This document shows positions 42,887 through 50,548 of a stretch of DNA of 57,234 nucleotides, one piece after another. The stretch is from a virus (Duplodnaviria > Caudoviricetes). The notes under the pieces are model-generated. The model was given only the letters and a program-made list of their open reading frames with translations, did not search any database and was not told the origin of the DNA. A program made the translations under genes and the position numbers. Location: positions 1-57,234 of IMG/VR virus record IMGVR_UViG_3300016484_000638; one strand, given 5' to 3'. Each line of letters starts with the position of its first letter. The first letter of the stretch is position 1.

Positions 42887-42942
42887 AATACAAATATATG
42901 AAATTATTTAATACCAAATAATTTTTTATAAATATTTTATAG

Positions 42943-43013
42943 AGGCCCCGATTGGACTTGAACCAATGTAAGCGGTTTTGCAGACCGCCTCCTAACCACT
43001 CGGACACGGGACC
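42943..43013 (-). tRNA. tRNA-Cys(GCA)
   Basis: Full cloverleaf, loop CTGCAAA, U73. Confidence 0.95.
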
Positions 43014-43020
43014 TTAAATT

Positions 43021-43098
43021 TGGTGGATCGTAAGGGACTTGAACCCTTGACCCCCGCAGTGCAAATGCGGTGCTCTAGCCAATCTGAGCTAACAACCC
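43021..43098 (-). tRNA. tRNA-Ala(TGC)
   Basis: Cloverleaf, G3.U70, encoded CCA. Confidence 0.95.
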
Positions 43099-43109
43099 AT
43101 AATAACGTC

Positions 43110-43208
43110 GATAGGACTTAACTGGAACCTCTCATTTATATCCAATCATCAATAGGTAATTAACCCATACCAGGTGCATCCCAATTTTAACTGGGAATAT
43201 ATCCTATC
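43110..43208 (-). ncRNA. Unassigned structured RNA in tRNA operon
   Basis: Closing stem GATAGGAT/GTCCTATC; CCCAGTT/AATTGGG hairpin. Confidence 0.55.
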
Positions 43209-43213
43209 TATTG

Positions 43214-43284
43214 AGCGGGTAGATGGTAACTCTCCATCTTCCTCGGTTTGGAAGACCGACGCATTAATTTTATGCTATACCCGC
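43214..43284 (-). tRNA. tRNA-Gly(TCC), non-canonical D/T loops
   Basis: Perfect stems; D loop AAAATTA; T loop AGAGTTA. Confidence 0.85.
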
Positions 43285-43295
43285 AAATTGTGGGT

Positions 43296-43393
43296 AGGGG
43301 TCTCCCACGATAGACTTAAGGTTTCGGATTATTTAACGACAATTCCTAAATGTCAACCGCCCGCATGTCCTTCACCTTGAAGCGGGAACCCCT
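43296..43393 (-). ncRNA. Unassigned structured RNA overlapping HEG 3' end
   Basis: Closing stem AGGGGTTCCCGC/GTGGGAGACCCCT. Confidence 0.55.
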
Positions 43394-44204
43394 TATGATT
43401 TTTAATTTTATTTATAATATCTAATACCTCTATCTCATATTTTTTATTTAATAAAGGTTTAACCTTAAATCTTATTAATTTATATTTTTCTTTTATTATA
43501 TTTTCTCTAATTATTTCTTTTTCATTATTACTATCATGCCATCTTTCACCATCTATTTCGACACATAGATTAAGTTTTGGAAAAAAGAAATCCACATAAT
43601 AATTATTCACCTTAAATTGTTTAATAAAATCCTCACCATTGACCAACCCTTTTAAAACTAAAAATTCATTAAAAAATTTTTCAGGATATGTTTCCTTAAT
43701 TGAAGCACATCTTTTATTAGGATGCAGGTCTGGGTTTTTTTTATATCTTTCTTTGGCTATTATACTTAATTTTTCTTTAAAGATTTTTGAATTTTTAAGA
43801 CAACTTAAAGAACAATACTTTTGTTTATTTTTTTTAACTTTTTTACCACACTCAATACAATCTGTTCTAGGTAATTTATTATTATTTGGTATATTTTTAA
43901 GTGACTCACTTATTTTAATTTTGGTGAGTTGACTTTTTATTTTACCCTTATTATTATAACTAGCAGAACAACTATTATTACAAAAATTTCTATCTCTTGA
44001 TTCTAAATCAACAAAATCTTTACCACAATTTTTACAAATAAAATTTTTATAAAAATTTTTTCTAATAGATTTAATACCTAAACGATTACATCTATTAGTT
44101 ACTGAACTAATAGTTATATTCATTTTTTCAGAAATTTCTTTATAACTAAAACCATCTTTTATTAAAGATTTCAGTTCGTTATCTTTCTCTACAATCCATT
44201 TCAT
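43353..44204 (-). mobile_element. PD-(D/E)XK (Vsr/DUF559-like) homing endonuclease with Zn fingers
   Basis: YYVDFF...VEIDGERWH; CxxC..CxxxC repeats. Confidence 0.8.
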
Positions 44205-44270
44205 ATAAATAAATATCTCAAAATGAGTTAAAAAATATTCTTGAACCTATATTTTTGGTTATAGAACTTG

Positions 44271-44344
44271 AGAGGGTGATCGGGATCTAACCGACTCTAT
44301 TCCACATTGGCAATGTGGTGCACCAACATTTATGCGTCACCCTC
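44271..44344 (-). tRNA. tRNA-Gly(GCC), non-canonical elbow
   Basis: CCACA-TTGCCAA-TGTGG; T loop TTAGATC. Confidence 0.85.
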
Positions 44345-44350
44345 TTGTGT

Positions 44351-44443
44351 GGGTGGAGTCAGACGCGTTCTGTCCACCGAGACCGTAACTTGAATTTCTT
44401 CAGAGGTTAACGACACAAGATTTGTGGGAACCGCACCCCACCC
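44351..44443 (-). ncRNA. Unassigned multi-arm RNA
   Basis: GGGTGGGGT/ACTCCACCC closing stem; three internal hairpins. Confidence 0.55.
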
Positions 44444-44474
44444 TGAACTTGTACTTCGTTCTTTTAAGCGTTTT

Positions 44475-44551
44475 TGGCGGTCCTGATGGGACTCGAACCC
44501 ACGATCTCCGCCGTGACAGGGCGGCGTCCACTCCATCTGGACTGCAGGACC
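44475..44551 (-). tRNA. tRNA-Asp(GTC)
   Basis: Cloverleaf, G73, CCA. Confidence 0.95.
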
Positions 44552-44586
44552 TTTTATATCTTTATTAAGAAGTTCAGAAAAATGTT

Positions 44587-44721
44587 TTAAAAGTTAGCAT
44601 CTTTTTTTTTATTTGCTGAAATTTTTCTTTTTATCTTCTTTATTTTTCTTTCTAACCAATTGGTATGCTTTTTCCTTAATATATCCTTACTTGACTCTAA
44701 TTTACCTGTTAATACTTCCAT
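44587..44721 (-). CDS. 44-aa Lys-rich ORF inside tRNA operon
   Basis: MEVLTGK...KKDANF*. Confidence 0.4.
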   Translation of the reverse strand: MEVLTGKLESSKDILRKKHTNWLERKIKKIKRKISANKKKDANF

Positions 44722-44747
44722 TCTTAATTTCTCTCTCTTTATTTCTG

Positions 44748-44828
44748 TGGGAGAAGAGGGACTCGAACCCCCAAGGCTTTCGCGACAGATTTACAGTCTG
44801 CTGAGCCAACCAATTGCTCAACTCTCCC
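44748..44828 (-). tRNA. tRNA-Tyr(GTA)
   Basis: Cloverleaf with variable arm. Confidence 0.95.
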
Positions 44829-44834
44829 TTATTG

Positions 44835-44909
44835 TGTCCCCGATAGGGTTCGAACCTATGACCCCTCCATTAAAAGTGGAGTGCTCTAAACCAACTGAGC
44901 TACGAAGAC
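44835..44909 (-). tRNA. tRNA-Lys(TTT)
   Basis: Cloverleaf, loop CTTTTAA. Confidence 0.95.
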
Positions 44910-44929
44910 GTTATTAATATTATGACAAT

Positions 44930-44963
44930 AAAAAAACCCCAACTAATTCTTTAGTCAGGGTTT
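44930..44963 (-). terminator. Attenuator terminator of tRNA operon A
   Basis: AACCCTGACTAA-AGAA-TTAGTTGGGGTTTTTTT just upstream of tRNA-Lys. Confidence 0.85.
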
Positions 44964-44990
44964 CATGTATAATTTTATATTTATAAAATA

Positions 44991-45080
44991 CTATACAGAC
45001 ATATTCTGACCATTTAAGATGTAATCACATCCTTTGTCGGCTTTCGCGTCACAACCTTTATATGTTTTATAGTTTTTCAT
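44991..45080 (-). CDS. Leader peptide A: MKNYKTYKGCDAKADKGCDYILNGQNMSV
   Basis: Lies between promoter and terminator; K/Y/G/C/D/A rich, matching downstream tRNAs. Confidence 0.85.
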   Translation of the reverse strand: MKNYKTYKGCDAKADKGCDYILNGQNMSV

Positions 45081-45109
45081 GTTTATAATATTGTTTATCT
45101 TTAAATATG

Positions 45110-45142
45110 ATACAAAGATAGTAAAAGTTTTACAATTGTCAA
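45110..45142 (-). promoter_or_regulatory. Promoter of tRNA operon A
   Basis: TTGACAATTGTAAAACTTTTACTATCTTTGTA. Confidence 0.75.
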
Positions 45143-45159
45143 GTATTTTTATTTTTTTT

Positions 45160-45570
45160 TTAATTTTTTCTCCCCCACGAGTAATGAACAATGGTTCCGT
45201 TTATATATTCTTTCCAGTATTTATTCCATGGTCCAGAAAATAATAGGGTACAACAACCATTACTATTAGCAATTCTATGGTAACAATTTCTTGGGAAGAA
45301 TTTTATAAACTGGGTTCTTCTTTCAACATGGAAATCACCAGTTAATTCATCATCCAATATGTGTTCATCATATTCACCAAACAATTTAAAAGATAGTGCG
45401 TTAAATGCATGTGTATGAAACCTATCTTGTGGTTTGTTTGATTTATGAAAATAAAAAAATATGATTGAACCCAACCATTTACACTCAAATACTACAAATT
45501 GAGTTACTTTCTGCTCACCAAACTCAAATCTATTGAGTCTTAAAAATGAAATATAATCCGTCTTTATCAC
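45160..45570 (-). CDS. Cupin-like protein
   Basis: FHTHAF...GEYDE...YHRI...TLLFSGP. Confidence 0.65.
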   Translation of the reverse strand: MIKTDYISFLRLNRFEFGEQKVTQFVVFECKWLGSIIFFYFHKSNKPQDRFHTHAFNALSFKLFGEYDEHILDDELTGDFHVERRTQFIKFFPRNCYHRIANSNGCCTLLFSGPWNKYWKEYINGTIVHYSWGRKN

Positions 45571-45596
45571 GGAATATAAAACTAAGGTTTTTTAAC

Positions 45597-46385
45597 TTAA
45601 TGGTCAAGTTTTAAATTAAAATATTCTCTTCCATCTATAATTTCTGGCTCGTCAAAATTTTCACTACGTTCTACATATCTTTCTGCATCACCCATTAAAT
45701 CATACCAATCTCTAACCTTATTTCTTTTATTAGATGCACCAAAAACCACCCTACCATTTAAACCTATCACTAAATGGTGTAAATATTTGTAAGTTAAAAA
45801 AGGTTTTAAAGTTACTATACCACCTTGAGCACAATAAAGACCTTCATCAGAATTTAATAATGTATTTAAAACAACATTATATTCGTCCTCTGTAATCAAT
45901 GGTTCAAATTTAATTATCTTGTTTTTAAATGATGGGTTAGTGTTAATAATCCAATCTAAATCTTCAGATTCATTTAATCTATCGTTAAAAATGTGATTTA
46001 ATTTATATTGTATATATGGTTTGCCTTCTAAATCTTTTCTAACATCAAGATATTTATTTTCATAAAATATAAGTTTATTATCACCATAGCCAATTCTTCT
46101 TACATTATACTGATTTATAAAAAATCTAATATATGCTGACCCATTTTTAGAATATTTTAAAAGACTTCTAATAAATTGTTGCCTACTATCACCCATTCTC
46201 GTATTTACTTGGGTAAGCATGTCGTATAGCTGACCCAGTTCTGATTCAGTGGTTGATTCATCTAGCCACACAACAACTAATGGATCATCAGTCATAAACG
46301 GGTTAGGTGCCTCCATATTAATCCAATCAAAATCATCCATTTCTTCTTCTTTTATAATTTTTTTAATATTCTTTCTTAATATCAT
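45597..46385 (-). CDS. ILKE/DW-tag two-module protein
   Basis: KKIIKEEEMDDFDW; internal LNESEDLDW. Confidence 0.7.
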   Translation of the reverse strand: MILRKNIKKIIKEEEMDDFDWINMEAPNPFMTDDPLVVVWLDESTTESELGQLYDMLTQVNTRMGDSRQQFIRSLLKYSKNGSAYIRFFINQYNVRRIGYGDNKLIFYENKYLDVRKDLEGKPYIQYKLNHIFNDRLNESEDLDWIINTNPSFKNKIIKFEPLITEDEYNVVLNTLLNSDEGLYCAQGGIVTLKPFLTYKYLHHLVIGLNGRVVFGASNKRNKVRDWYDLMGDAERYVERSENFDEPEIIDGREYFNLKLDH

Positions 46386-46500
46386 TTAATCCTTTTTTTC
46401 TGTTGCATATTTAATACCCATAATAGTTCCAACTATTGAAAAGGAAAACTACCATCAAAAATACTGATGAATATAATAACAATTTACGGTTTTTAGTCAT
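46386..46500 (-). pseudogene. Probable deleted/frameshifted small membrane gene
   Basis: MTKNRKLLLY.. in one frame; SFSIVGTIMGIKYATEKKD* in another, abutting next ATG. Confidence 0.35.
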
Positions 46501-46537
46501 ATTAATAAATATGCTAAAAAATTATAAACAGAAAAAG

Positions 46538-47263
46538 TTATTTTTTTTTGTGTTTATAATTTAAGTCTTTAAAGCACAGTATTGAGATTAATAAACCCAT
46601 AAATAATAGAATTAAGGCTATAGTCTTATATGTGTCACCAGAAGTGGATAAATTAAAATTCCATAAACCGTGATAAGTTACAGATGTTACAAACCCGATT
46701 AAACTAAAAATAAAAACTTTAAAATTTTTCTTTTTATTCACAAGTATACTGAAAATACTTTTACCGTTAGGTGTTGGTTTTTTTAATTTACTTAATCCGA
46801 TCCAATAACCAAATATAAATCCAGAAATGATATGGGCAATGGTTGATGTTACGGATCTAATAGGTATAATATATGGACCATATGATAAACCATATTGTAT
46901 GTTTTCAAATATAGAAAAACCTAAACCAAGCATACCAAAATATATCATAGTACTAAGTGGATGGTTTTTATCACTAATTAAATAAGATAATATAACAAAG
47001 GCAATTAATTTAGATAACTCTTCTTTTGTCGCAGTAACTAAAAAGTCATTATAAAAATGATTATTCCCCAACATTACCCAACCTGGTAAATTTAAAAAAA
47101 TAAAACTCAATATTAAAACTGATAATATACCACCAAAAATATATTGTATAGTTTTAGAAAATTTTATTGTACCATAAGGTAATATTGTGTAAAGTATTAA
47201 AATATAAGCATAAGCCGGCATTAATGATAATATAGTACAAACTGTTAAAATTGTTAAATCCAT
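46538..47263 (-). CDS. PrsW-family intramembrane glutamic protease
   Basis: EELSK, GFSIFENIQY, AH, YHGLWN; multiple TMs. Confidence 0.85.
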   Translation of the reverse strand: MDLTILTVCTILSLMPAYAYILILYTILPYGTIKFSKTIQYIFGGILSVLILSFIFLNLPGWVMLGNNHFYNDFLVTATKEELSKLIAFVILSYLISDKNHPLSTMIYFGMLGLGFSIFENIQYGLSYGPYIIPIRSVTSTIAHIISGFIFGYWIGLSKLKKPTPNGKSIFSILVNKKKNFKVFIFSLIGFVTSVTYHGLWNFNLSTSGDTYKTIALILLFMGLLISILCFKDLNYKHKKK

Positions 47264-47279
47264 ATACAAATATAATGAA

Positions 47280-47741
47280 TTAAAATTGTGAAACAAAATT
47301 ATCCATAACCATAGTGAATTCATTAATTTCATTAAATTCATAATCAATCTGAAAATCCCGTAAACTACAACCAATTAAAATCCATTGTGATATTACAGAC
47401 CCTAAAGGATCTATTGACATTAACGTTGCGTTAATTTTTCTACCGTAAATATTGTCTTGGTAGTTAACCCAACTATTTAAATCTCCACTTCTGATAACCT
47501 CTCTAATTATTACTCTGATAGGATTAATCTCCATAAGGCGAAAATTTCTACCCATTTCACCAAAATAACCATAATCAAAATTAGAACGACTTATTCTAGG
47601 TATCTCACTATCAACAAAATATTCACCATACGGACCTAAATCTAAAATATACCTATGTCTGTACATAGGTTCTTGTAAAATTCTTAATCCAGTTCGTTCT
47701 TTAAAATTATTTAATTTCTTAATATATTTTTTTGGTTGCAT
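47280..47741 (-). CDS. Tail-tube (gp19)-like divergent protein
   Basis: EP..HRYIL; 'SIDPLGSVISQWILIGC'. Confidence 0.45.
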   Translation of the reverse strand: MQPKKYIKKLNNFKERTGLRILQEPMYRHRYILDLGPYGEYFVDSEIPRISRSNFDYGYFGEMGRNFRLMEINPIRVIIREVIRSGDLNSWVNYQDNIYGRKINATLMSIDPLGSVISQWILIGCSLRDFQIDYEFNEINEFTMVMDNFVSQF

Positions 47742-47849
47742 GTTATAACATTAATTTATTTTTTTAGATTATAAATGATATTTATTTATAAATATTAAAA
47801 TGGAGGATGATGTTTTTGATGATACTTTTTGGCACCCAGACCAATCTTT

Positions 47850-48365
47850 ATGAAAAAATTTATTAAAAAAATATTAAAAGAAGATTTTGATTGGATAGAT
47901 GATATACCGTCATTTATTGAAATCACTGAACCAGTTACTCAAAGTAACCCCAAAGACATATTTAGATTATATTGGACAAATGAACACTACACTGGTGACT
48001 ATGGTGTATGGTCTGACGATTGGTATGGTTTTAAAAATGATTCTAATGGTGTTAATAATTTAACAAGATATGTTAAAATATTACAAAATGGTTTAGATGA
48101 CAGAACCAATGAATTTGATTTTGATTTATTAGTAGATTTATATTTTAATCAAGGTCATAGTTATATAGCCACTGATTTTATGAAACGTGAACTTTCTAAT
48201 GAGGACTACACAGATAAAAAACATATTTTATCTCAAATGTTAAAAGATGATTTAAATGACTTGGGTATTTTCAACTGGGGTGGTGGTGTTACATTAGAGA
48301 GGTGGAAAGTAACTTACTTCGACGAAAATGGTATAGAGTTTAACACAAAAATCAATAATATATAG
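47850..48365 (+). CDS. ILKE/DW-tag protein
   Basis: MKKFIKKILKEDFDW. Confidence 0.7.
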   Translation: MKKFIKKILKEDFDWIDDIPSFIEITEPVTQSNPKDIFRLYWTNEHYTGDYGVWSDDWYGFKNDSNGVNNLTRYVKILQNGLDDRTNEFDFDLLVDLYFNQGHSYIATDFMKRELSNEDYTDKKHILSQMLKDDLNDLGIFNWGGGVTLERWKVTYFDENGIEFNTKINNI

Positions 48366-48439
48366 TACACCTGGGAGGATTTGAACCTCCAACCTTTTGT
48401 TCCGTATACAAACGCTCTGTCCAGTTGAGCTACAAGTGT
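48366..48439 (-). tRNA. tRNA-Arg(ACG)
   Basis: Cloverleaf, loop ATACGGA. Confidence 0.9.
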
Positions 48440-48443
48440 GTGG

Positions 48444-48505
48444 GGTACACAAACACGGGAAATGTCGACCACTTCCCTGACTCTCTCGTCTTAGTTAGGT
48501 ATACC
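48444..48505 (-). ncRNA. Small structured spacer RNA
   Basis: GGTATAC/GTGTACC closing stem; GGGAAGTG/CATTTCCC hairpin. Confidence 0.45.
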
Positions 48506-48512
48506 TTTTAAG

Positions 48513-48596
48513 CGGAAAGCAGTGGCCCTGATCCACATACAGTTTCCCGTACCAACAACTTAGCAGGTTGTGCCTACCCTGGTAGATTTACTTTCC
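48513..48596 (-). tRNA. tRNA-Ser(GCT), 8/4 fold
   Basis: GGAAAGTA/TGCTTTCC, T stem GTGG/CCAC, loop CTGCTAA, G73. Confidence 0.8.
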
Positions 48597-48604
48597 ATTA
48601 ATTG

Positions 48605-48678
48605 CACGCCTGGATGGATTCGAACCACCAACACTCGGATTTGGAATCCGATGCTCTACCAATTGGAGCTACAGACGC
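48605..48678 (-). tRNA. tRNA-Trp(CCA)
   Basis: Cloverleaf, loop TTCCAAA. Confidence 0.95.
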
Positions 48679-48688
48679 GTTTATAAAG

Positions 48689-48762
48689 TAGTTATGGAGG
48701 GAGTTGAACCCCCGACCTTTTGAGTATCAGTCAAATGCTCTAACCAACTGAGCTACATAACT
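48689..48762 (-). tRNA. tRNA-Ile(GAT)
   Basis: Cloverleaf, loop CTGATAC. Confidence 0.95.
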
Positions 48763-48816
48763 ATTGTAAGACTATCTAAACTCCAAATGAGAACTTCGTC
48801 TTTTTTAGTTTTTTAG

Positions 48817-48903
48817 CTGATGGGGTGGGATTCGAACCCACGGTGGAGTATAACTCACCAGATTAACAGTCTGAACCCTTCGGCCAACTCGGGACACCCA
48901 TCA
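48817..48903 (-). tRNA. tRNA-Asn(GTT) with long variable arm
   Basis: TGATGGG/CCCATCA-G; loop CTGTTAA; 16-nt variable arm. Confidence 0.85.
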
Positions 48904-48917
48904 TTATTATTTTTTAG

Positions 48918-49000
48918 CGGAAGACGAGGGAATCGAACCCCCAAAGCTTTTACACCCAGCCGCTTTCAAGGCGGTGTCCTCGTCCATTCGGGCGCCTTCC
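48918..49000 (-). tRNA. tRNA-Ser(TGA)
   Basis: Loop CTTGAAA, variable arm, G73; can fold 8/4. Confidence 0.85.
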
Positions 49001-49012
49001 GTATTTTATTTG

Positions 49013-49084
49013 AGCCATAAGTCTGAATCGAACAGACGACCTCTTCCCTACCAAGGAAGTGCTCTGCCTCTGAGCTACAAACAC
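49013..49084 (-). tRNA. tRNA-Thr(GGT), chimeric with broken acceptor stem
   Basis: Loop TTGGTAG; 5' strand GTGTTTG identical to that of tRNA-His. Confidence 0.7.
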
Positions 49085-49089
49085 CATTT

Positions 49090-49731
49090 TTATTTTCTAC
49101 CTTTAACCCAATTTTCATTTAAGTAGGTTTCAAGGTCTTCTTTTTTAATCTTTTTGTTGATACCATCTTTAGTTATCCAACATGTACCGAATTGACTGTT
49201 TGTTTCACCAACTCCAGTACCTTTTCTTATTTCAGACATCAACTGTTTTGTTTCTTCTGAATGAGTTTTACCATTCCAATCATAATTAACATATCTATCA
49301 ATTTTACCTTCTTCATATGCTTTTTTAATCGATTTAGACAATGTATCACTTTTTTTCTTAACCCATTCTGGGTCTTGTCTTAAAAGCTTTTGTTTTTCAT
49401 TTGATTTAATCACATTTAATTTTTGTTGTTCCGAGCTAAACCCACCAGTACCACCTTCTCTAAGGTTCATACACATAGGGTTTTCCACTAATTCTTTATT
49501 AACAATTTCAATCTCTCTAAGAACTAACTCTTCTCTTGTTGGTGAAAACTCCAGTATTTCTTTAGTATGGTTTTCTACACCATATTTTCTAATTGAATAT
49601 CTAAGTCGTTTACCACTACCCATATAATTATCTTCTAAGTTATACGTACTATGCATCCCAACATAGTATCTTCCAGTTACATTACATGTTGTTTTATAGA
49701 TGTAATGAATATTTCTTTTTTTTCTTGCCAT
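49090..49731 (-). mobile_element. GIY-YIG (Seg-like) homing endonuclease
   Basis: YIYKTT..YYVGMH..YMGSG..CMNL..GG; NUMOD3; SQFGTCWIT. Confidence 0.85.
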
Positions 49732-49791
49732 TTTTACTTCTTTCTAAATAAATATCTAGAAATTTGTAAAAAGTACAAAAAAGTTTAAGAG

Positions 49792-49866
49792 GGTGAATGG
49801 TGGGAATCGAACCCACGACCTCTTGAACCACAATCAAGCACTCTAACCAACTGAGCTACAAACACC
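49792..49866 (-). tRNA. tRNA-His(GTG)
   Basis: G-1, C73, loop TTGTGGT; two U.U mismatches in acceptor stem. Confidence 0.9.
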
Positions 49867-49872
49867 ATAAAT

Positions 49873-49908
49873 AAAAAACCCGACTAGTTTTGAATTAGTC
49901 GGGTTTTT
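49873..49908 (-). terminator. Attenuator terminator of tRNA operon B
   Basis: AAAAACCCGACTA-ATTCAAAAC-TAGTCGGGTTTTTT just upstream of tRNA-His. Confidence 0.85.
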
Positions 49909-49928
49909 ATAATCTTAGATGAGTAATG

Positions 49929-50030
49929 TTACATTCCTGTACCACCTTCACAATTATACGTACCCGACACATGGTGACTATTGCGTCCCCAATTCGAAAT
50001 CGAAATCATATGTACATTAATTGTTTTCAT
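49929..50030 (-). CDS. Leader peptide B: MKTINVHMISISNWGRNSHHVSGTYNCEGGTGM (not in ORF track)
   Basis: Lies between promoter and terminator; T/I/N/H/S/W/R rich, matching downstream tRNAs. Confidence 0.85.
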   Translation of the reverse strand: MKTINVHMISISNWGRNSHHVSGTYNCEGGTGM

Positions 50031-50047
50031 CTTGTTTATAAATATAC

Positions 50048-50079
50048 TACAAATATAGTAAAAGTTTTTTAATTGTCAA
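50048..50079 (-). promoter_or_regulatory. Promoter of tRNA operon B
   Basis: TTGACAATTAAAAAACTTTTACTATATTTGTA. Confidence 0.75.
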
Positions 50080-50080
50080 T

Positions 50081-50548
50081 TTATTTTTGACTTTTTTTAT
50101 CTTCAGGTTTTAAAGAAATGATTAAATCTCTAATTTTAGCGGCATCTTCATATTTTTCTTCCTGGATTGCCTTATTAAGTTTAGACTCCAATAATTTAAC
50201 TGTGTCCATTTCTTGATTTCTTTCCCTACCTTCTGGACCAAAAAAGTTTTTCTTATAATATCTATAGTTCCTAGAACCATCTGGTGAAGACCAATTTTTT
50301 GATTCCCAAGAACCGTTATCATCTAAACCTTTATCTTCGTTAAATTCGTTAGGCATTTGTCCAAAGAAGTTTTTAATAAAACTATCCTCATCCATAGGTT
50401 TCATAAACCCAAACCTACTATTCATATCTGGTTGACCGTACATATCTCTCATAAAGTTATTCATTCCAGACTGATACATGTTTAAAATTCTGATAAACTC
50501 TTTTCTAAATTCATCATCACTCATGTTATTAAATCCAAATTCTTCCAT
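50081..50548 (-). CDS. UvrB/UvrC-motif protein
   Basis: LNKAIQEEKYEDAAKIRD. Confidence 0.75.
   Translation of the reverse strand: MEEFGFNNMSDDEFRKEFIRILNMYQSGMNNFMRDMYGQPDMNSRFGFMKPMDEDSFIKNFFGQMPNEFNEDKGLDDNGSWESKNWSSPDGSRNYRYYKKNFFGPEGRERNQEMDTVKLLESKLNKAIQEEKYEDAAKIRDLIISLKPEDKKSQK

Follow-up and report, generated by a model that had tools for sequence, protein, structure and literature searches.

Why would a phage place a short open reading frame (ORF) and a transcription terminator between a promoter and a row of transfer RNA (tRNA) genes? The question is raised by positions 44,930 to 45,142 (minus strand) of the IMG/VR virus record IMGVR_UViG_3300016484_000638 (Duplodnaviria; Caudoviricetes), of which the stretch from 1 to 57,234 was analysed (the window). 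In this region a promoter is followed by a 29-codon leader ORF, an intrinsic terminator and an operon of tRNA genes (together unit A; Table 1). An earlier note, made from the letters alone, had described the region as a leader-peptide attenuator tuned to the tRNAs encoded downstream. Every element it described was found at its place on the minus strand, and the proposal as a whole is supported by the composition of the leader, its reading frame, a paralogue in the same window, units in related phages and covariation. Unit A most likely is a ribosome-mediated, multivalent transcription attenuator that raises transcription of the tRNA genes when their own codons are decoded slowly.

The reason why phages carry tRNA genes has been disputed over decades. 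Their function is called unclear in the available parts of PMC10264068 and PMC13015707, and the proposals, as given in the accessible text of PMC11464382 and PMC12409363, have codon compensation at one end and evasion of defences that target tRNAs at the other. A leader that spells the tRNAs of its own operon would, if the reading is true, mean that the phage gauges how those codons are being decoded and produces the tRNAs as they are needed, and the question of the phage tRNAs would become testable as the question which shortage opens which operon.

A leader ORF rich in the codons of its own operon

Of the codons 2-20 of leader A, 17 (out of 19) specify Lys, Tyr, Gly, Cys, Asp or Ala, the same count as in the earlier note; the exceptions are Asn (codon 3) and Thr (codon 6). 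As had also been claimed, all five Lys codons are AAA and Gly is represented by both GGT and GGA (in the order GGT, GGA, GGT); Ala is encoded by GCG and GCC. Against the background residue frequency in the window's own 45 long ORFs (0.31 for this set), the match of codons 2-21 (17/20) corresponds to a binomial p of 9e-7, and over the whole ORF 18 of 28 residues belong to the tRNA set of the operon. All six frames of the window together contain 233 ATG-initiated ORFs of 20-60 codons, among which leader A ranks first with a score of 17, ahead of a runner-up at 11. The match is also specific for the frame: 17/28 codons are cognate in frame versus 8/28 and 4/28 in the other two. The leader is thus rich in codons tied to the regulated product, a hallmark of attenuators.

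Small ORFs abound in AT-rich genomes, as the 233 in the window illustrate, and the terminator is thermodynamically dominant over the structure that competes with it (see below). Both points would fit a chance ORF followed by a hairpin that either terminates the upstream gene (45570-45160) or acts as a constitutive partial terminator, the tRNA genes being unregulated. Leader A is, however, a 6-standard-deviation outlier for its own tRNA set (17 versus a mean of 4.3 and a standard deviation of 2.1 across the 233 ORFs), and the design recurs with matched content in 12 units. Moreover, the promoter sits between the upstream gene and the leader ORF, so that the terminator would end a transcript that starts at promoter A. 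We strongly disfavour this explanation and consider it very improbable.

The same design in a paralogue and in related phages

A DNA search of the record with the sequence of unit A identified a paralogue at 50088-50022 (unit B). Promoter and terminator can be aligned well between units A and B, unlike the ORFs that they flank. In leader B, 15 of the codons 2-21 (15/20, p = 3e-4) fall in the set of its own operon, which places it second among the 233 small ORFs. The two leaders hardly match each other's operons: the match is only 0.21 for leader A with set B and only 0.25 for leader B with set A.

The relatives of the window phage are phage contigs of 150-318 kb. One of these, G004 (318 kb), was reached via the promoter core (see below) and contains four units. 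In all, 12 units were analysed: A and B in the window, four in G004, two in G001 and one each in L043, L054, L060 and L067 (all IMG/VR relatives). One unit was taken per homologous group, which gave eight non-homologous units for the permutation and Fisher tests. Duplicates (five loci for L043, L069 for L067, and L045 and L050 for G004) were left out, and so were two further loci. The first is L061, with a locus of 1302 nucleotides (nt) and an incomplete operon, where a leader rich in Asn, Ile, His, Ser, Arg and Trp is followed by tRNA-His and tRNA-Asn. The second is L058 (2240-2640), where the promoter core is followed by a 23-codon ORF with five His codons in a row and by neither a terminator nor a tRNA gene.

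An ORF was found between the promoter and the first tRNA gene in 12/12 units, and all 12 leaders are enriched for their own tRNA set (p from 4e-7 to 0.08). Among all 40,320 permutations of leaders and operons the true pairing had the highest summed z, and over 10 units 157/297 leader codons are cognate in frame versus 72/297 and 53/297 out of frame. For instance, all residues of one G001 leader (36/36) lie within the 16-amino-acid set of its operon, with no Ala, Asp, Glu or Gly, and in the next unit of G001 both the operon and the leader carry Leu, Gly, Ala and Glu. Similarly, in G4_4, the orthologue of unit A in G004, the operon includes a tRNA-Pro gene and the leader two Pro codons, whereas unit A has neither. 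An apparent joint gain of Met codons and tRNA-Met in L054 relative to L043 was dropped, as a lower ARAGORN threshold gives two tRNA-Met(CAU) genes in both.

Alternative RNA structures and the position of the ribosome

For the region 44910-45085 the folding energy is -39 kcal/mol (z = -4.4), and none of 200 shuffled sequences folds as well. In addition to the terminator, the earlier note had proposed a long-range antiterminator in which 45012-45006 pairs with 44958-44952, enclosing AT-rich stems that contain the stop codon. Both the pairing and the inner hairpin (44999-44963) indeed appear in the minimum free energy (MFE) structure of the nascent transcript. A strand complementary to the 5' arm of the terminator, starting at codon 20-27, is present in 12/12 units; the shuffle p ranges from 0.001 to 0.25 per unit, with a Fisher p of 7e-6 for the eight non-homologous units. 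Unit A hence displays the structural features of leader-peptide attenuators, i.e. a leader ORF, codon enrichment, a terminator and a mutually exclusive antiterminator.

The two structures were found to vary together. In the orthologous pairs A/G4_4, B/G4_3 and L043/L054 the terminator arms differ, each being accompanied by a matching antiterminator strand. A strain variant of unit A, present in contigs of three other metagenome runs (X3, X4 and X5), has C-G in place of U-A at the terminator pair 44953:44944, a compensatory change by which the antiterminator pair 45011:44953 goes from G-U to G-C. In this variant the terminator pair 44957:44940 is also changed, from U-G to U-A. The two changed 5'-arm bases remain paired with the antiterminator strand. 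The analysis thus shows the anatomy of the unit, the operon-specific and frame-specific codon match, the alternative pairings and their covariation.

The geometry of the units is also conserved. The distance from the stop codon to the T tract is 49-65 nt, and that from the stop to the beginning of the terminator's 5' arm 21-31 nt, in 12/12 units. In 9/12 units there are 10-19 nt between the end of the antiterminator strand and the stop codon, a distance that has to be read with assumed sizes of the ribosome footprint; in L060 and G1_2 the strand overlaps the stop codon. The folding check with ribosome constraints that had been suggested in the earlier note gave opposite structures for the two ribosome positions. 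With a ribosome stalled at codon 12 and the 3' arm untranscribed, the MFE structure is the antiterminator, with 6-11 nt of the 5' arm paired upstream (12/12 units), and with the ribosome placed at the stop codon the RNA left unoccupied forms the terminator hairpin (10/10 units modelled). When no ribosome was included, the nascent fold still formed the antiterminator in 6/10 units. The spacing of strand, stop codon and terminator is constant and, for the footprints assumed, compatible with a ribosome that chooses the fold in most units.

A terminator/antiterminator switch before translation-related genes is also the logic of T-boxes, and triplets complementary to the anticodons of the operon are clustered in the leader. 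One could therefore think of direct RNA-tRNA sensing, in which the codons would serve as specifier triplets for the anticodons of uncharged tRNAs and no translation would be involved. The triplets lie, however, in a single frame with an ATG and a stop codon and at a constant distance between stop and terminator in 12/12 units, and elements for binding of the T-loop or the discriminator are not evident. At the gathering score, Rfam found only tRNA families in the window and no leader family (Trp, His, Leu, Thr, Phe or similar) or T-box or other cis-regulatory family; at E <= 0.1 there was neither a leader family nor a T-box or other cis-regulatory match in 42900-49900. A T-box-like mechanism is hardly credible in our view.

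Proposed mechanism

The most likely course of events, by leader-peptide attenuation, would be the following. The RNA polymerase of the host would initiate at the promoter (45142-45111) and a ribosome would translate the 29-codon leader, of which codons 2-20 almost all specify Lys, Tyr, Asp, Gly, Ala and Cys. A shortage of matching charged tRNA would slow down decoding and make the ribosome stall early, leaving 45012-45006 free to pair with 44958-44952 once that part of the 5' arm is made. The terminator would then be blocked and the polymerase would continue into the genes for tRNA-Lys, Tyr, Asp, Gly, Gly, Ala and Cys. On fast decoding, the ribosome would pass the strand and reach the stop codon in the inner hairpin, the antiterminator would melt, the 14-pair terminator would form and transcription would end 20 nt before tRNA-Lys. 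From the features described above we infer that the leader is translated, that the switch works in this direction and that regulation takes place in vivo. The phage would then probably make the tRNAs of an operon only when ribosomes read the corresponding codons slowly.

The operon would constitute a supply-and-demand loop, since the tRNAs produced would relieve the stall that induces them, and the circuit would be a direct feedback on decoding capacity, since the regulated tRNAs read the test codons. A more far-reaching reading, which combines a self-closing supply-demand circuit for each tRNA operon with a role as an inducible counter-defence, is offered here tentatively and appears rather doubtful. 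If the supply-demand part is true, the multivalent test message would let the ribosome gauge decoding and open exactly the tRNAs in short supply. If the counter-defence version is true, host anticodon nucleases or infection-triggered tRNA depletion (e.g. loss of tRNA-Lys or of the Tyr/His/Asn/Asp group) would switch on the matching phage operon, and the phage would bear the cost of spare tRNAs only under attack.

Evidence against the attenuator and the question of general sensing

Several observations weigh against attenuation by the leaders. Under strict wobble rules only 53% of the leader codons are cognate overall. The GCC of leader A is, as the earlier note had rightly remarked, no standard wobble match for tRNA-Ala(UGC), and it is the sole such Ala codon; tRNA-Thr(GGU) does not read the Thr codons in leader B; and the leader of G4_4 has GGC and GGT, yet its operon has no tRNA-Gly(GCC). 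Enrichment is weak in G1_2 (9/23, p = 0.08), and the rule for picking leader ORFs, which required 35-75 nt between stop codon and T tract, was set post hoc. The antiterminator of unit A is weak (7 pairs, RNAduplex -9.6 kcal/mol, p = 0.027 with 2000 shuffles), and the corresponding p exceeds 0.1 in 4/12 units. In unit B a gap of 29 nt separates the end of the antiterminator strand from the stop codon, too far for a ribosome sitting on the stop to cover the strand, and termination would thus depend on melting of the inner helices. A leaderless promoter unit exists (2/17 promoter hits with a tRNA gene within 600 nt), and a promoter-like site at 43356-43328 together with the inserted endonuclease gene could uncouple tRNA-Gly(UCC), tRNA-Ala and tRNA-Cys from the attenuator. 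No RNA run is listed as carrying 42900-50100, and the contigs from the matching runs are DNA.

Folding energies count on the same side. The earlier note had made its proposal depend on an energetically competitive antiterminator, and this calls for a qualification: at equilibrium the terminated fold is favoured by 7.2 kcal/mol in unit A, while the antiterminator does form in the MFE structure of the nascent transcript. In unit B the terminated fold is favoured by 4.7 kcal/mol. The antiterminator, if acting, must then act kinetically, and equilibrium energies such as these cannot decide on a kinetic switch. In classical attenuators the terminated fold is likewise the stabler one and the antiterminator wins through earlier transcription, so the equilibrium deficit does not refute attenuation.

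Some of these points bear on another explanation, in which the translated leader does control the terminator and senses general translation capacity or amino-acid supply, or in which the peptide itself is functional, the codon match being secondary. A stalled ribosome cannot distinguish a missing from an uncharged tRNA, and the match at the strict codon level is limited to the fraction given above. The antiterminators that form without a ribosome imply that any loss of translation would open the operon. Furthermore, part of the leader peptide is conserved between the orthologues A and G4_4, as might suit a functional peptide; the orthologues B and G4_3, on the other hand, keep the composition and not the sequence. 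A general sensor would not need an operon-specific leader composition, whereas the leaders within one genome are near-disjoint in composition, each fitting its own tRNAs, and the true pairing was the best of all permutations. We regard this explanation as unlikely and prefer the codon-specific attenuator.

Promoters with and without a leader

The 32-nt promoter pattern of unit A has two copies in the window (0 mismatches; 0.00 expected), the second of which heads operon B. The -10/-7 box fits the flavobacterial sigma-A consensus TAnnTTTG, and the stretch between promoter A and the leader is A-rich, untranslated and without a Shine-Dalgarno sequence. According to the available text of PMC9723704, TAnnTTTG is the flavobacterial -7 box consensus, and a Flavobacterium makes no use of Shine-Dalgarno sequences and shows signs of leader-peptide attenuation in amino-acid operons. 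Judged by the promoter box and the missing Shine-Dalgarno sequence, a Bacteroidota host is plausible for the window phage.

No match to the exact 25-nt promoter pattern was found in the viral contigs of IMG/VR; the 20-nt core gave 37 hits in 34 loci. Leader, terminator and tRNA genes follow in 15/37 hits. The promoter is generic, since 20/37 hits have no tRNA gene within 6 kb on the same strand. The other 2/37 lie directly before tRNA-Leu(UAA) without a leader and represent one site in two near-identical contigs. In G004 (L038 14230-14267; L045 2328; L050 6014) the core was observed 31 nt before tRNA-Leu(UAA), internal to the Gln-Phe-Thr-Val-Leu operon.

A third copy of the promoter type occurs in the window (52994-52964, minus strand) and is followed by only a 2-codon ORF, without leader or terminator. 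About 250 nt further on lies a 110-nt tRNA-like RNA (52700-52591, minus strand; Rfam tRNA 36.7 bits) in which ARAGORN finds no anticodon. The attenuator is thus not tied to every promoter that heads tRNA-like genes.

Features of the operons

Table 1. Elements of units A and B in the window and of the units in relative G004.
Feature	Positions	Strand	Remarks
Promoter of operon A	45111..45142	-	-35-like hexamer (45142-45137) and -10/-7 box; 10/12 matches in consensus scan
Leader ORF A	44991..45080	-	29 codons; ATG at 45080, TAG at 44993-44991; regulatory codons 2-20 at 45077-45021
Antiterminator 5' strand A	45006..45012	-	leader codons 23-25; pairs with 44958-44952 in the terminator 5' arm
Inner AT-rich hairpin	44963..44999	-	enclosed by the antiterminator; present in the computed folds; holds the stop codon (44993-44991)
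Intrinsic terminator A	44930..44964	-	hairpin 44964-44933 (14-pair stem, 4-nt loop), 7 T (44936-44930); hairpin -15.9 kcal/mol
tRNA-Lys(UUU)	44834..44909	-	first gene, 20 nt after terminator; ARAGORN and Rfam
tRNA-Tyr(GUA)	44747..44828	-	ARAGORN and Rfam
tRNA-Asp(GUC)	44475..44551	-	ARAGORN and Rfam
tRNA-Gly(GCC)	44271..44344	-	Rfam 43.5 bits; ARAGORN only at lowered threshold ps90
Endonuclease gene (DUF559/HNH-like) inserted in operon A	43353..44204	-	Pfam DUF559 E = 1e-7; PHROG HNH endonuclease families
tRNA-Gly(UCC)	43213..43284	-	ARAGORN and Rfam
tRNA-Ala(UGC)	43021..43098	-	ARAGORN and Rfam
tRNA-Cys(GCA)	42942..43013	-	last gene of operon A; ARAGORN and Rfam
Unit B (probable attenuator)	49875..50079	-	promoter 50079-50048; leader ORF 50030-49929 (33 codons); antiterminator strand ~49968-49962; terminator 49907-49875
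tRNAs of operon B	49865-48365	-	His(GUG), Thr(GGU), Ser(UGA), Asn(GUU), Ile(GAU), Trp(CCA), Ser(GCU)-like, Arg(ACG)
G004 unit before Glu(UUC), Arg(UCU)			leader with a block of 5 consecutive AGA/GAG/GAA codons
G004 unit before Gln, Phe, Thr, Val, Leu, Leu			leader 21/29, p = 4e-7
G004 unit before His, Asn x3, Ile, Trp, Ser, Ile, Arg			leader 20/30, p = 3e-5
G004 unit G4_4 before Tyr, Pro, Asp, Gly, Ala, Cys, Lys			orthologue of unit A

The endonuclease gene inserted in operon A is absent from the orthologous operon of G004. Between tRNA-Tyr and tRNA-Asp we observed a strongly basic ORF of 44 codons (44721-44587, minus strand) without a Pfam or PHROG match.

In operon B an endonuclease gene separates tRNA-His(GUG) from tRNA-Thr(GGU), the anticodon of the latter being read by eye from an Rfam hit at 49084-49013. 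Contigs from runs X2, X3 and X4 join 49007 to 49784 via 17 other letters and represent an allele in which operon B lacks the GIY-YIG/NUMOD3 homing-endonuclease gene (49731-49090). The tRNA at 48903-48816 (minus strand; 88 nt, Rfam 31.4 bits) combines the anticodon GUU (Asn) with a long variable arm of the Ser/Leu type; in G004 three ordinary tRNA-Asn genes (73-76 nt) are found instead. The Ser(GCU)-like tRNA (48596-48512, minus strand), located between tRNA-Trp and tRNA-Arg, was found by ARAGORN at lowered threshold only and not by Rfam, and seems to have a non-canonical T arm.

The TAG of leader A was taken as a stop codon because reading TAG as sense barely raises the coverage of the window by long ORFs (from 0.748 to 0.761; for TGA to 0.757). 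Recoding of stop codons in the window was rejected on this tiny gain, and no sign of it was seen in the window. In the relatives, G004 contains a 100-nt tRNA-like gene with the anticodon CUA (L072 17-116; ARAGORN at low threshold), and downstream of the match to the 136-amino-acid gene (see below) L011/L025 have what appears by eye to be the start of a release-factor-like ORF, broken by in-frame stops. Taken together, the two observations hint at possible recoding of a stop codon in relatives.

Source and neighbourhood of the window

The window, 57 kb long, is a fragment from the record of an uncultured virus; its CheckV completeness is ~20% and its G+C content ~29%. The minus strand of the record carries many tRNA genes, with homing-endonuclease genes scattered among them. 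DNA of the window is present in freshwater, riverine, aquatic, groundwater and estuary metagenomes from 11 studies; the window phage is a large freshwater phage. A DNA search of a phage database with 42900-46400 matched only tRNA genes of unrelated phages, and a search of 9 + 8 + 9 proteins against PHROGs and Pfam gave mostly endonucleases and no taxonomic placement.

For the 136-amino-acid gene directly upstream of unit A (45570-45160) 24 relatives were found in IMG/VR. None of these homologues (0/24) precedes a leader or tRNA genes, from which it follows that the gene neighbourhood of unit A is not conserved. For the 155-amino-acid gene upstream of unit B no relative was found.

Comparison with known systems

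If the attenuator reading is true, classical attenuation would be extended from enzymes to the decoding machinery, some of the leaders, with up to 16 amino acids each, would be more multivalent than any known, and the units would offer compact, programmable, codon-specific sensors for Bacteroidota-type hosts. A full-text literature search, with supplements and subscription journals outside its reach, found no published case of tRNA genes controlled by a leader peptide.

Among published tRNA arrays under regulation, the nearest that this search found is the trn operon of Anabaena sp. PCC 7120, an L-array of ~23-26 tRNA genes that, in the available parts of PMC8421152 and PMC10272220, is induced under translational stress. 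Its control is located at the promoter, where direct repeats cover the -10 box and the transcription start site and the repressor TrcR acts; attenuation, a leader or a terminator are not mentioned in the accessible text of PMC8421152. As described there, the trn array resembles the phage operons in being a horizontally mobile, supernumerary tRNA array that is off until translation is impaired, and differs from them in the use of a promoter-bound repressor instead of attenuation and in not being operon-specific for amino acids.

Drug-sensing leader peptides precede resistance genes such as erm, mef/mel and bmrCD. There too, in the sources as far as available, stalling of a ribosome on a short upstream ORF remodels the downstream RNA structure, but the stall comes from the drug and a motif of the nascent peptide and not from the supply of those tRNAs for which the codons call.

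T-boxes share with the phage units, as proposed here, a terminator/antiterminator switch that reads the state of specific tRNAs and controls translation-related genes. A T-box, however, binds the uncharged tRNA directly via one specifier codon without translation, and the phage units have no Rfam T-box match. To our knowledge no T-box is found upstream of tRNA genes. The pheST operon of Escherichia coli (encoding phenylalanyl-tRNA synthetase) is under control of the pheM leader attenuator; there leader-peptide attenuation acts on a component of the decoding apparatus, as it would in the phage units, but the operon is cellular and encodes a synthetase that serves a single amino acid.

In its design the phage element resembles the amino-acid leaders of enterobacteria, above all the multivalent ones. 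The trp, his, leu and phe leaders sense a single amino acid, whereas the multivalent leaders sense Thr and Ile (thr) or Ile, Leu and Val (ilvGMEDA). The pheL leader is described in the available part of PMC3082878. Shared features are a short codon-rich ORF, a terminator before the first gene, a strand that competes for the 5' arm and, as proposed for the phage units, the position of the ribosome as the switch. The phage-borne units are no sequence members of the Rfam leader families and have the stop codon downstream of the antiterminator strand, within the enclosed hairpin. In contrast to the enterobacterial leaders they would sense 6 to 16 amino acids together and regulate tRNA genes instead of biosynthetic enzymes, with a product that would act directly on the stalled ribosome.

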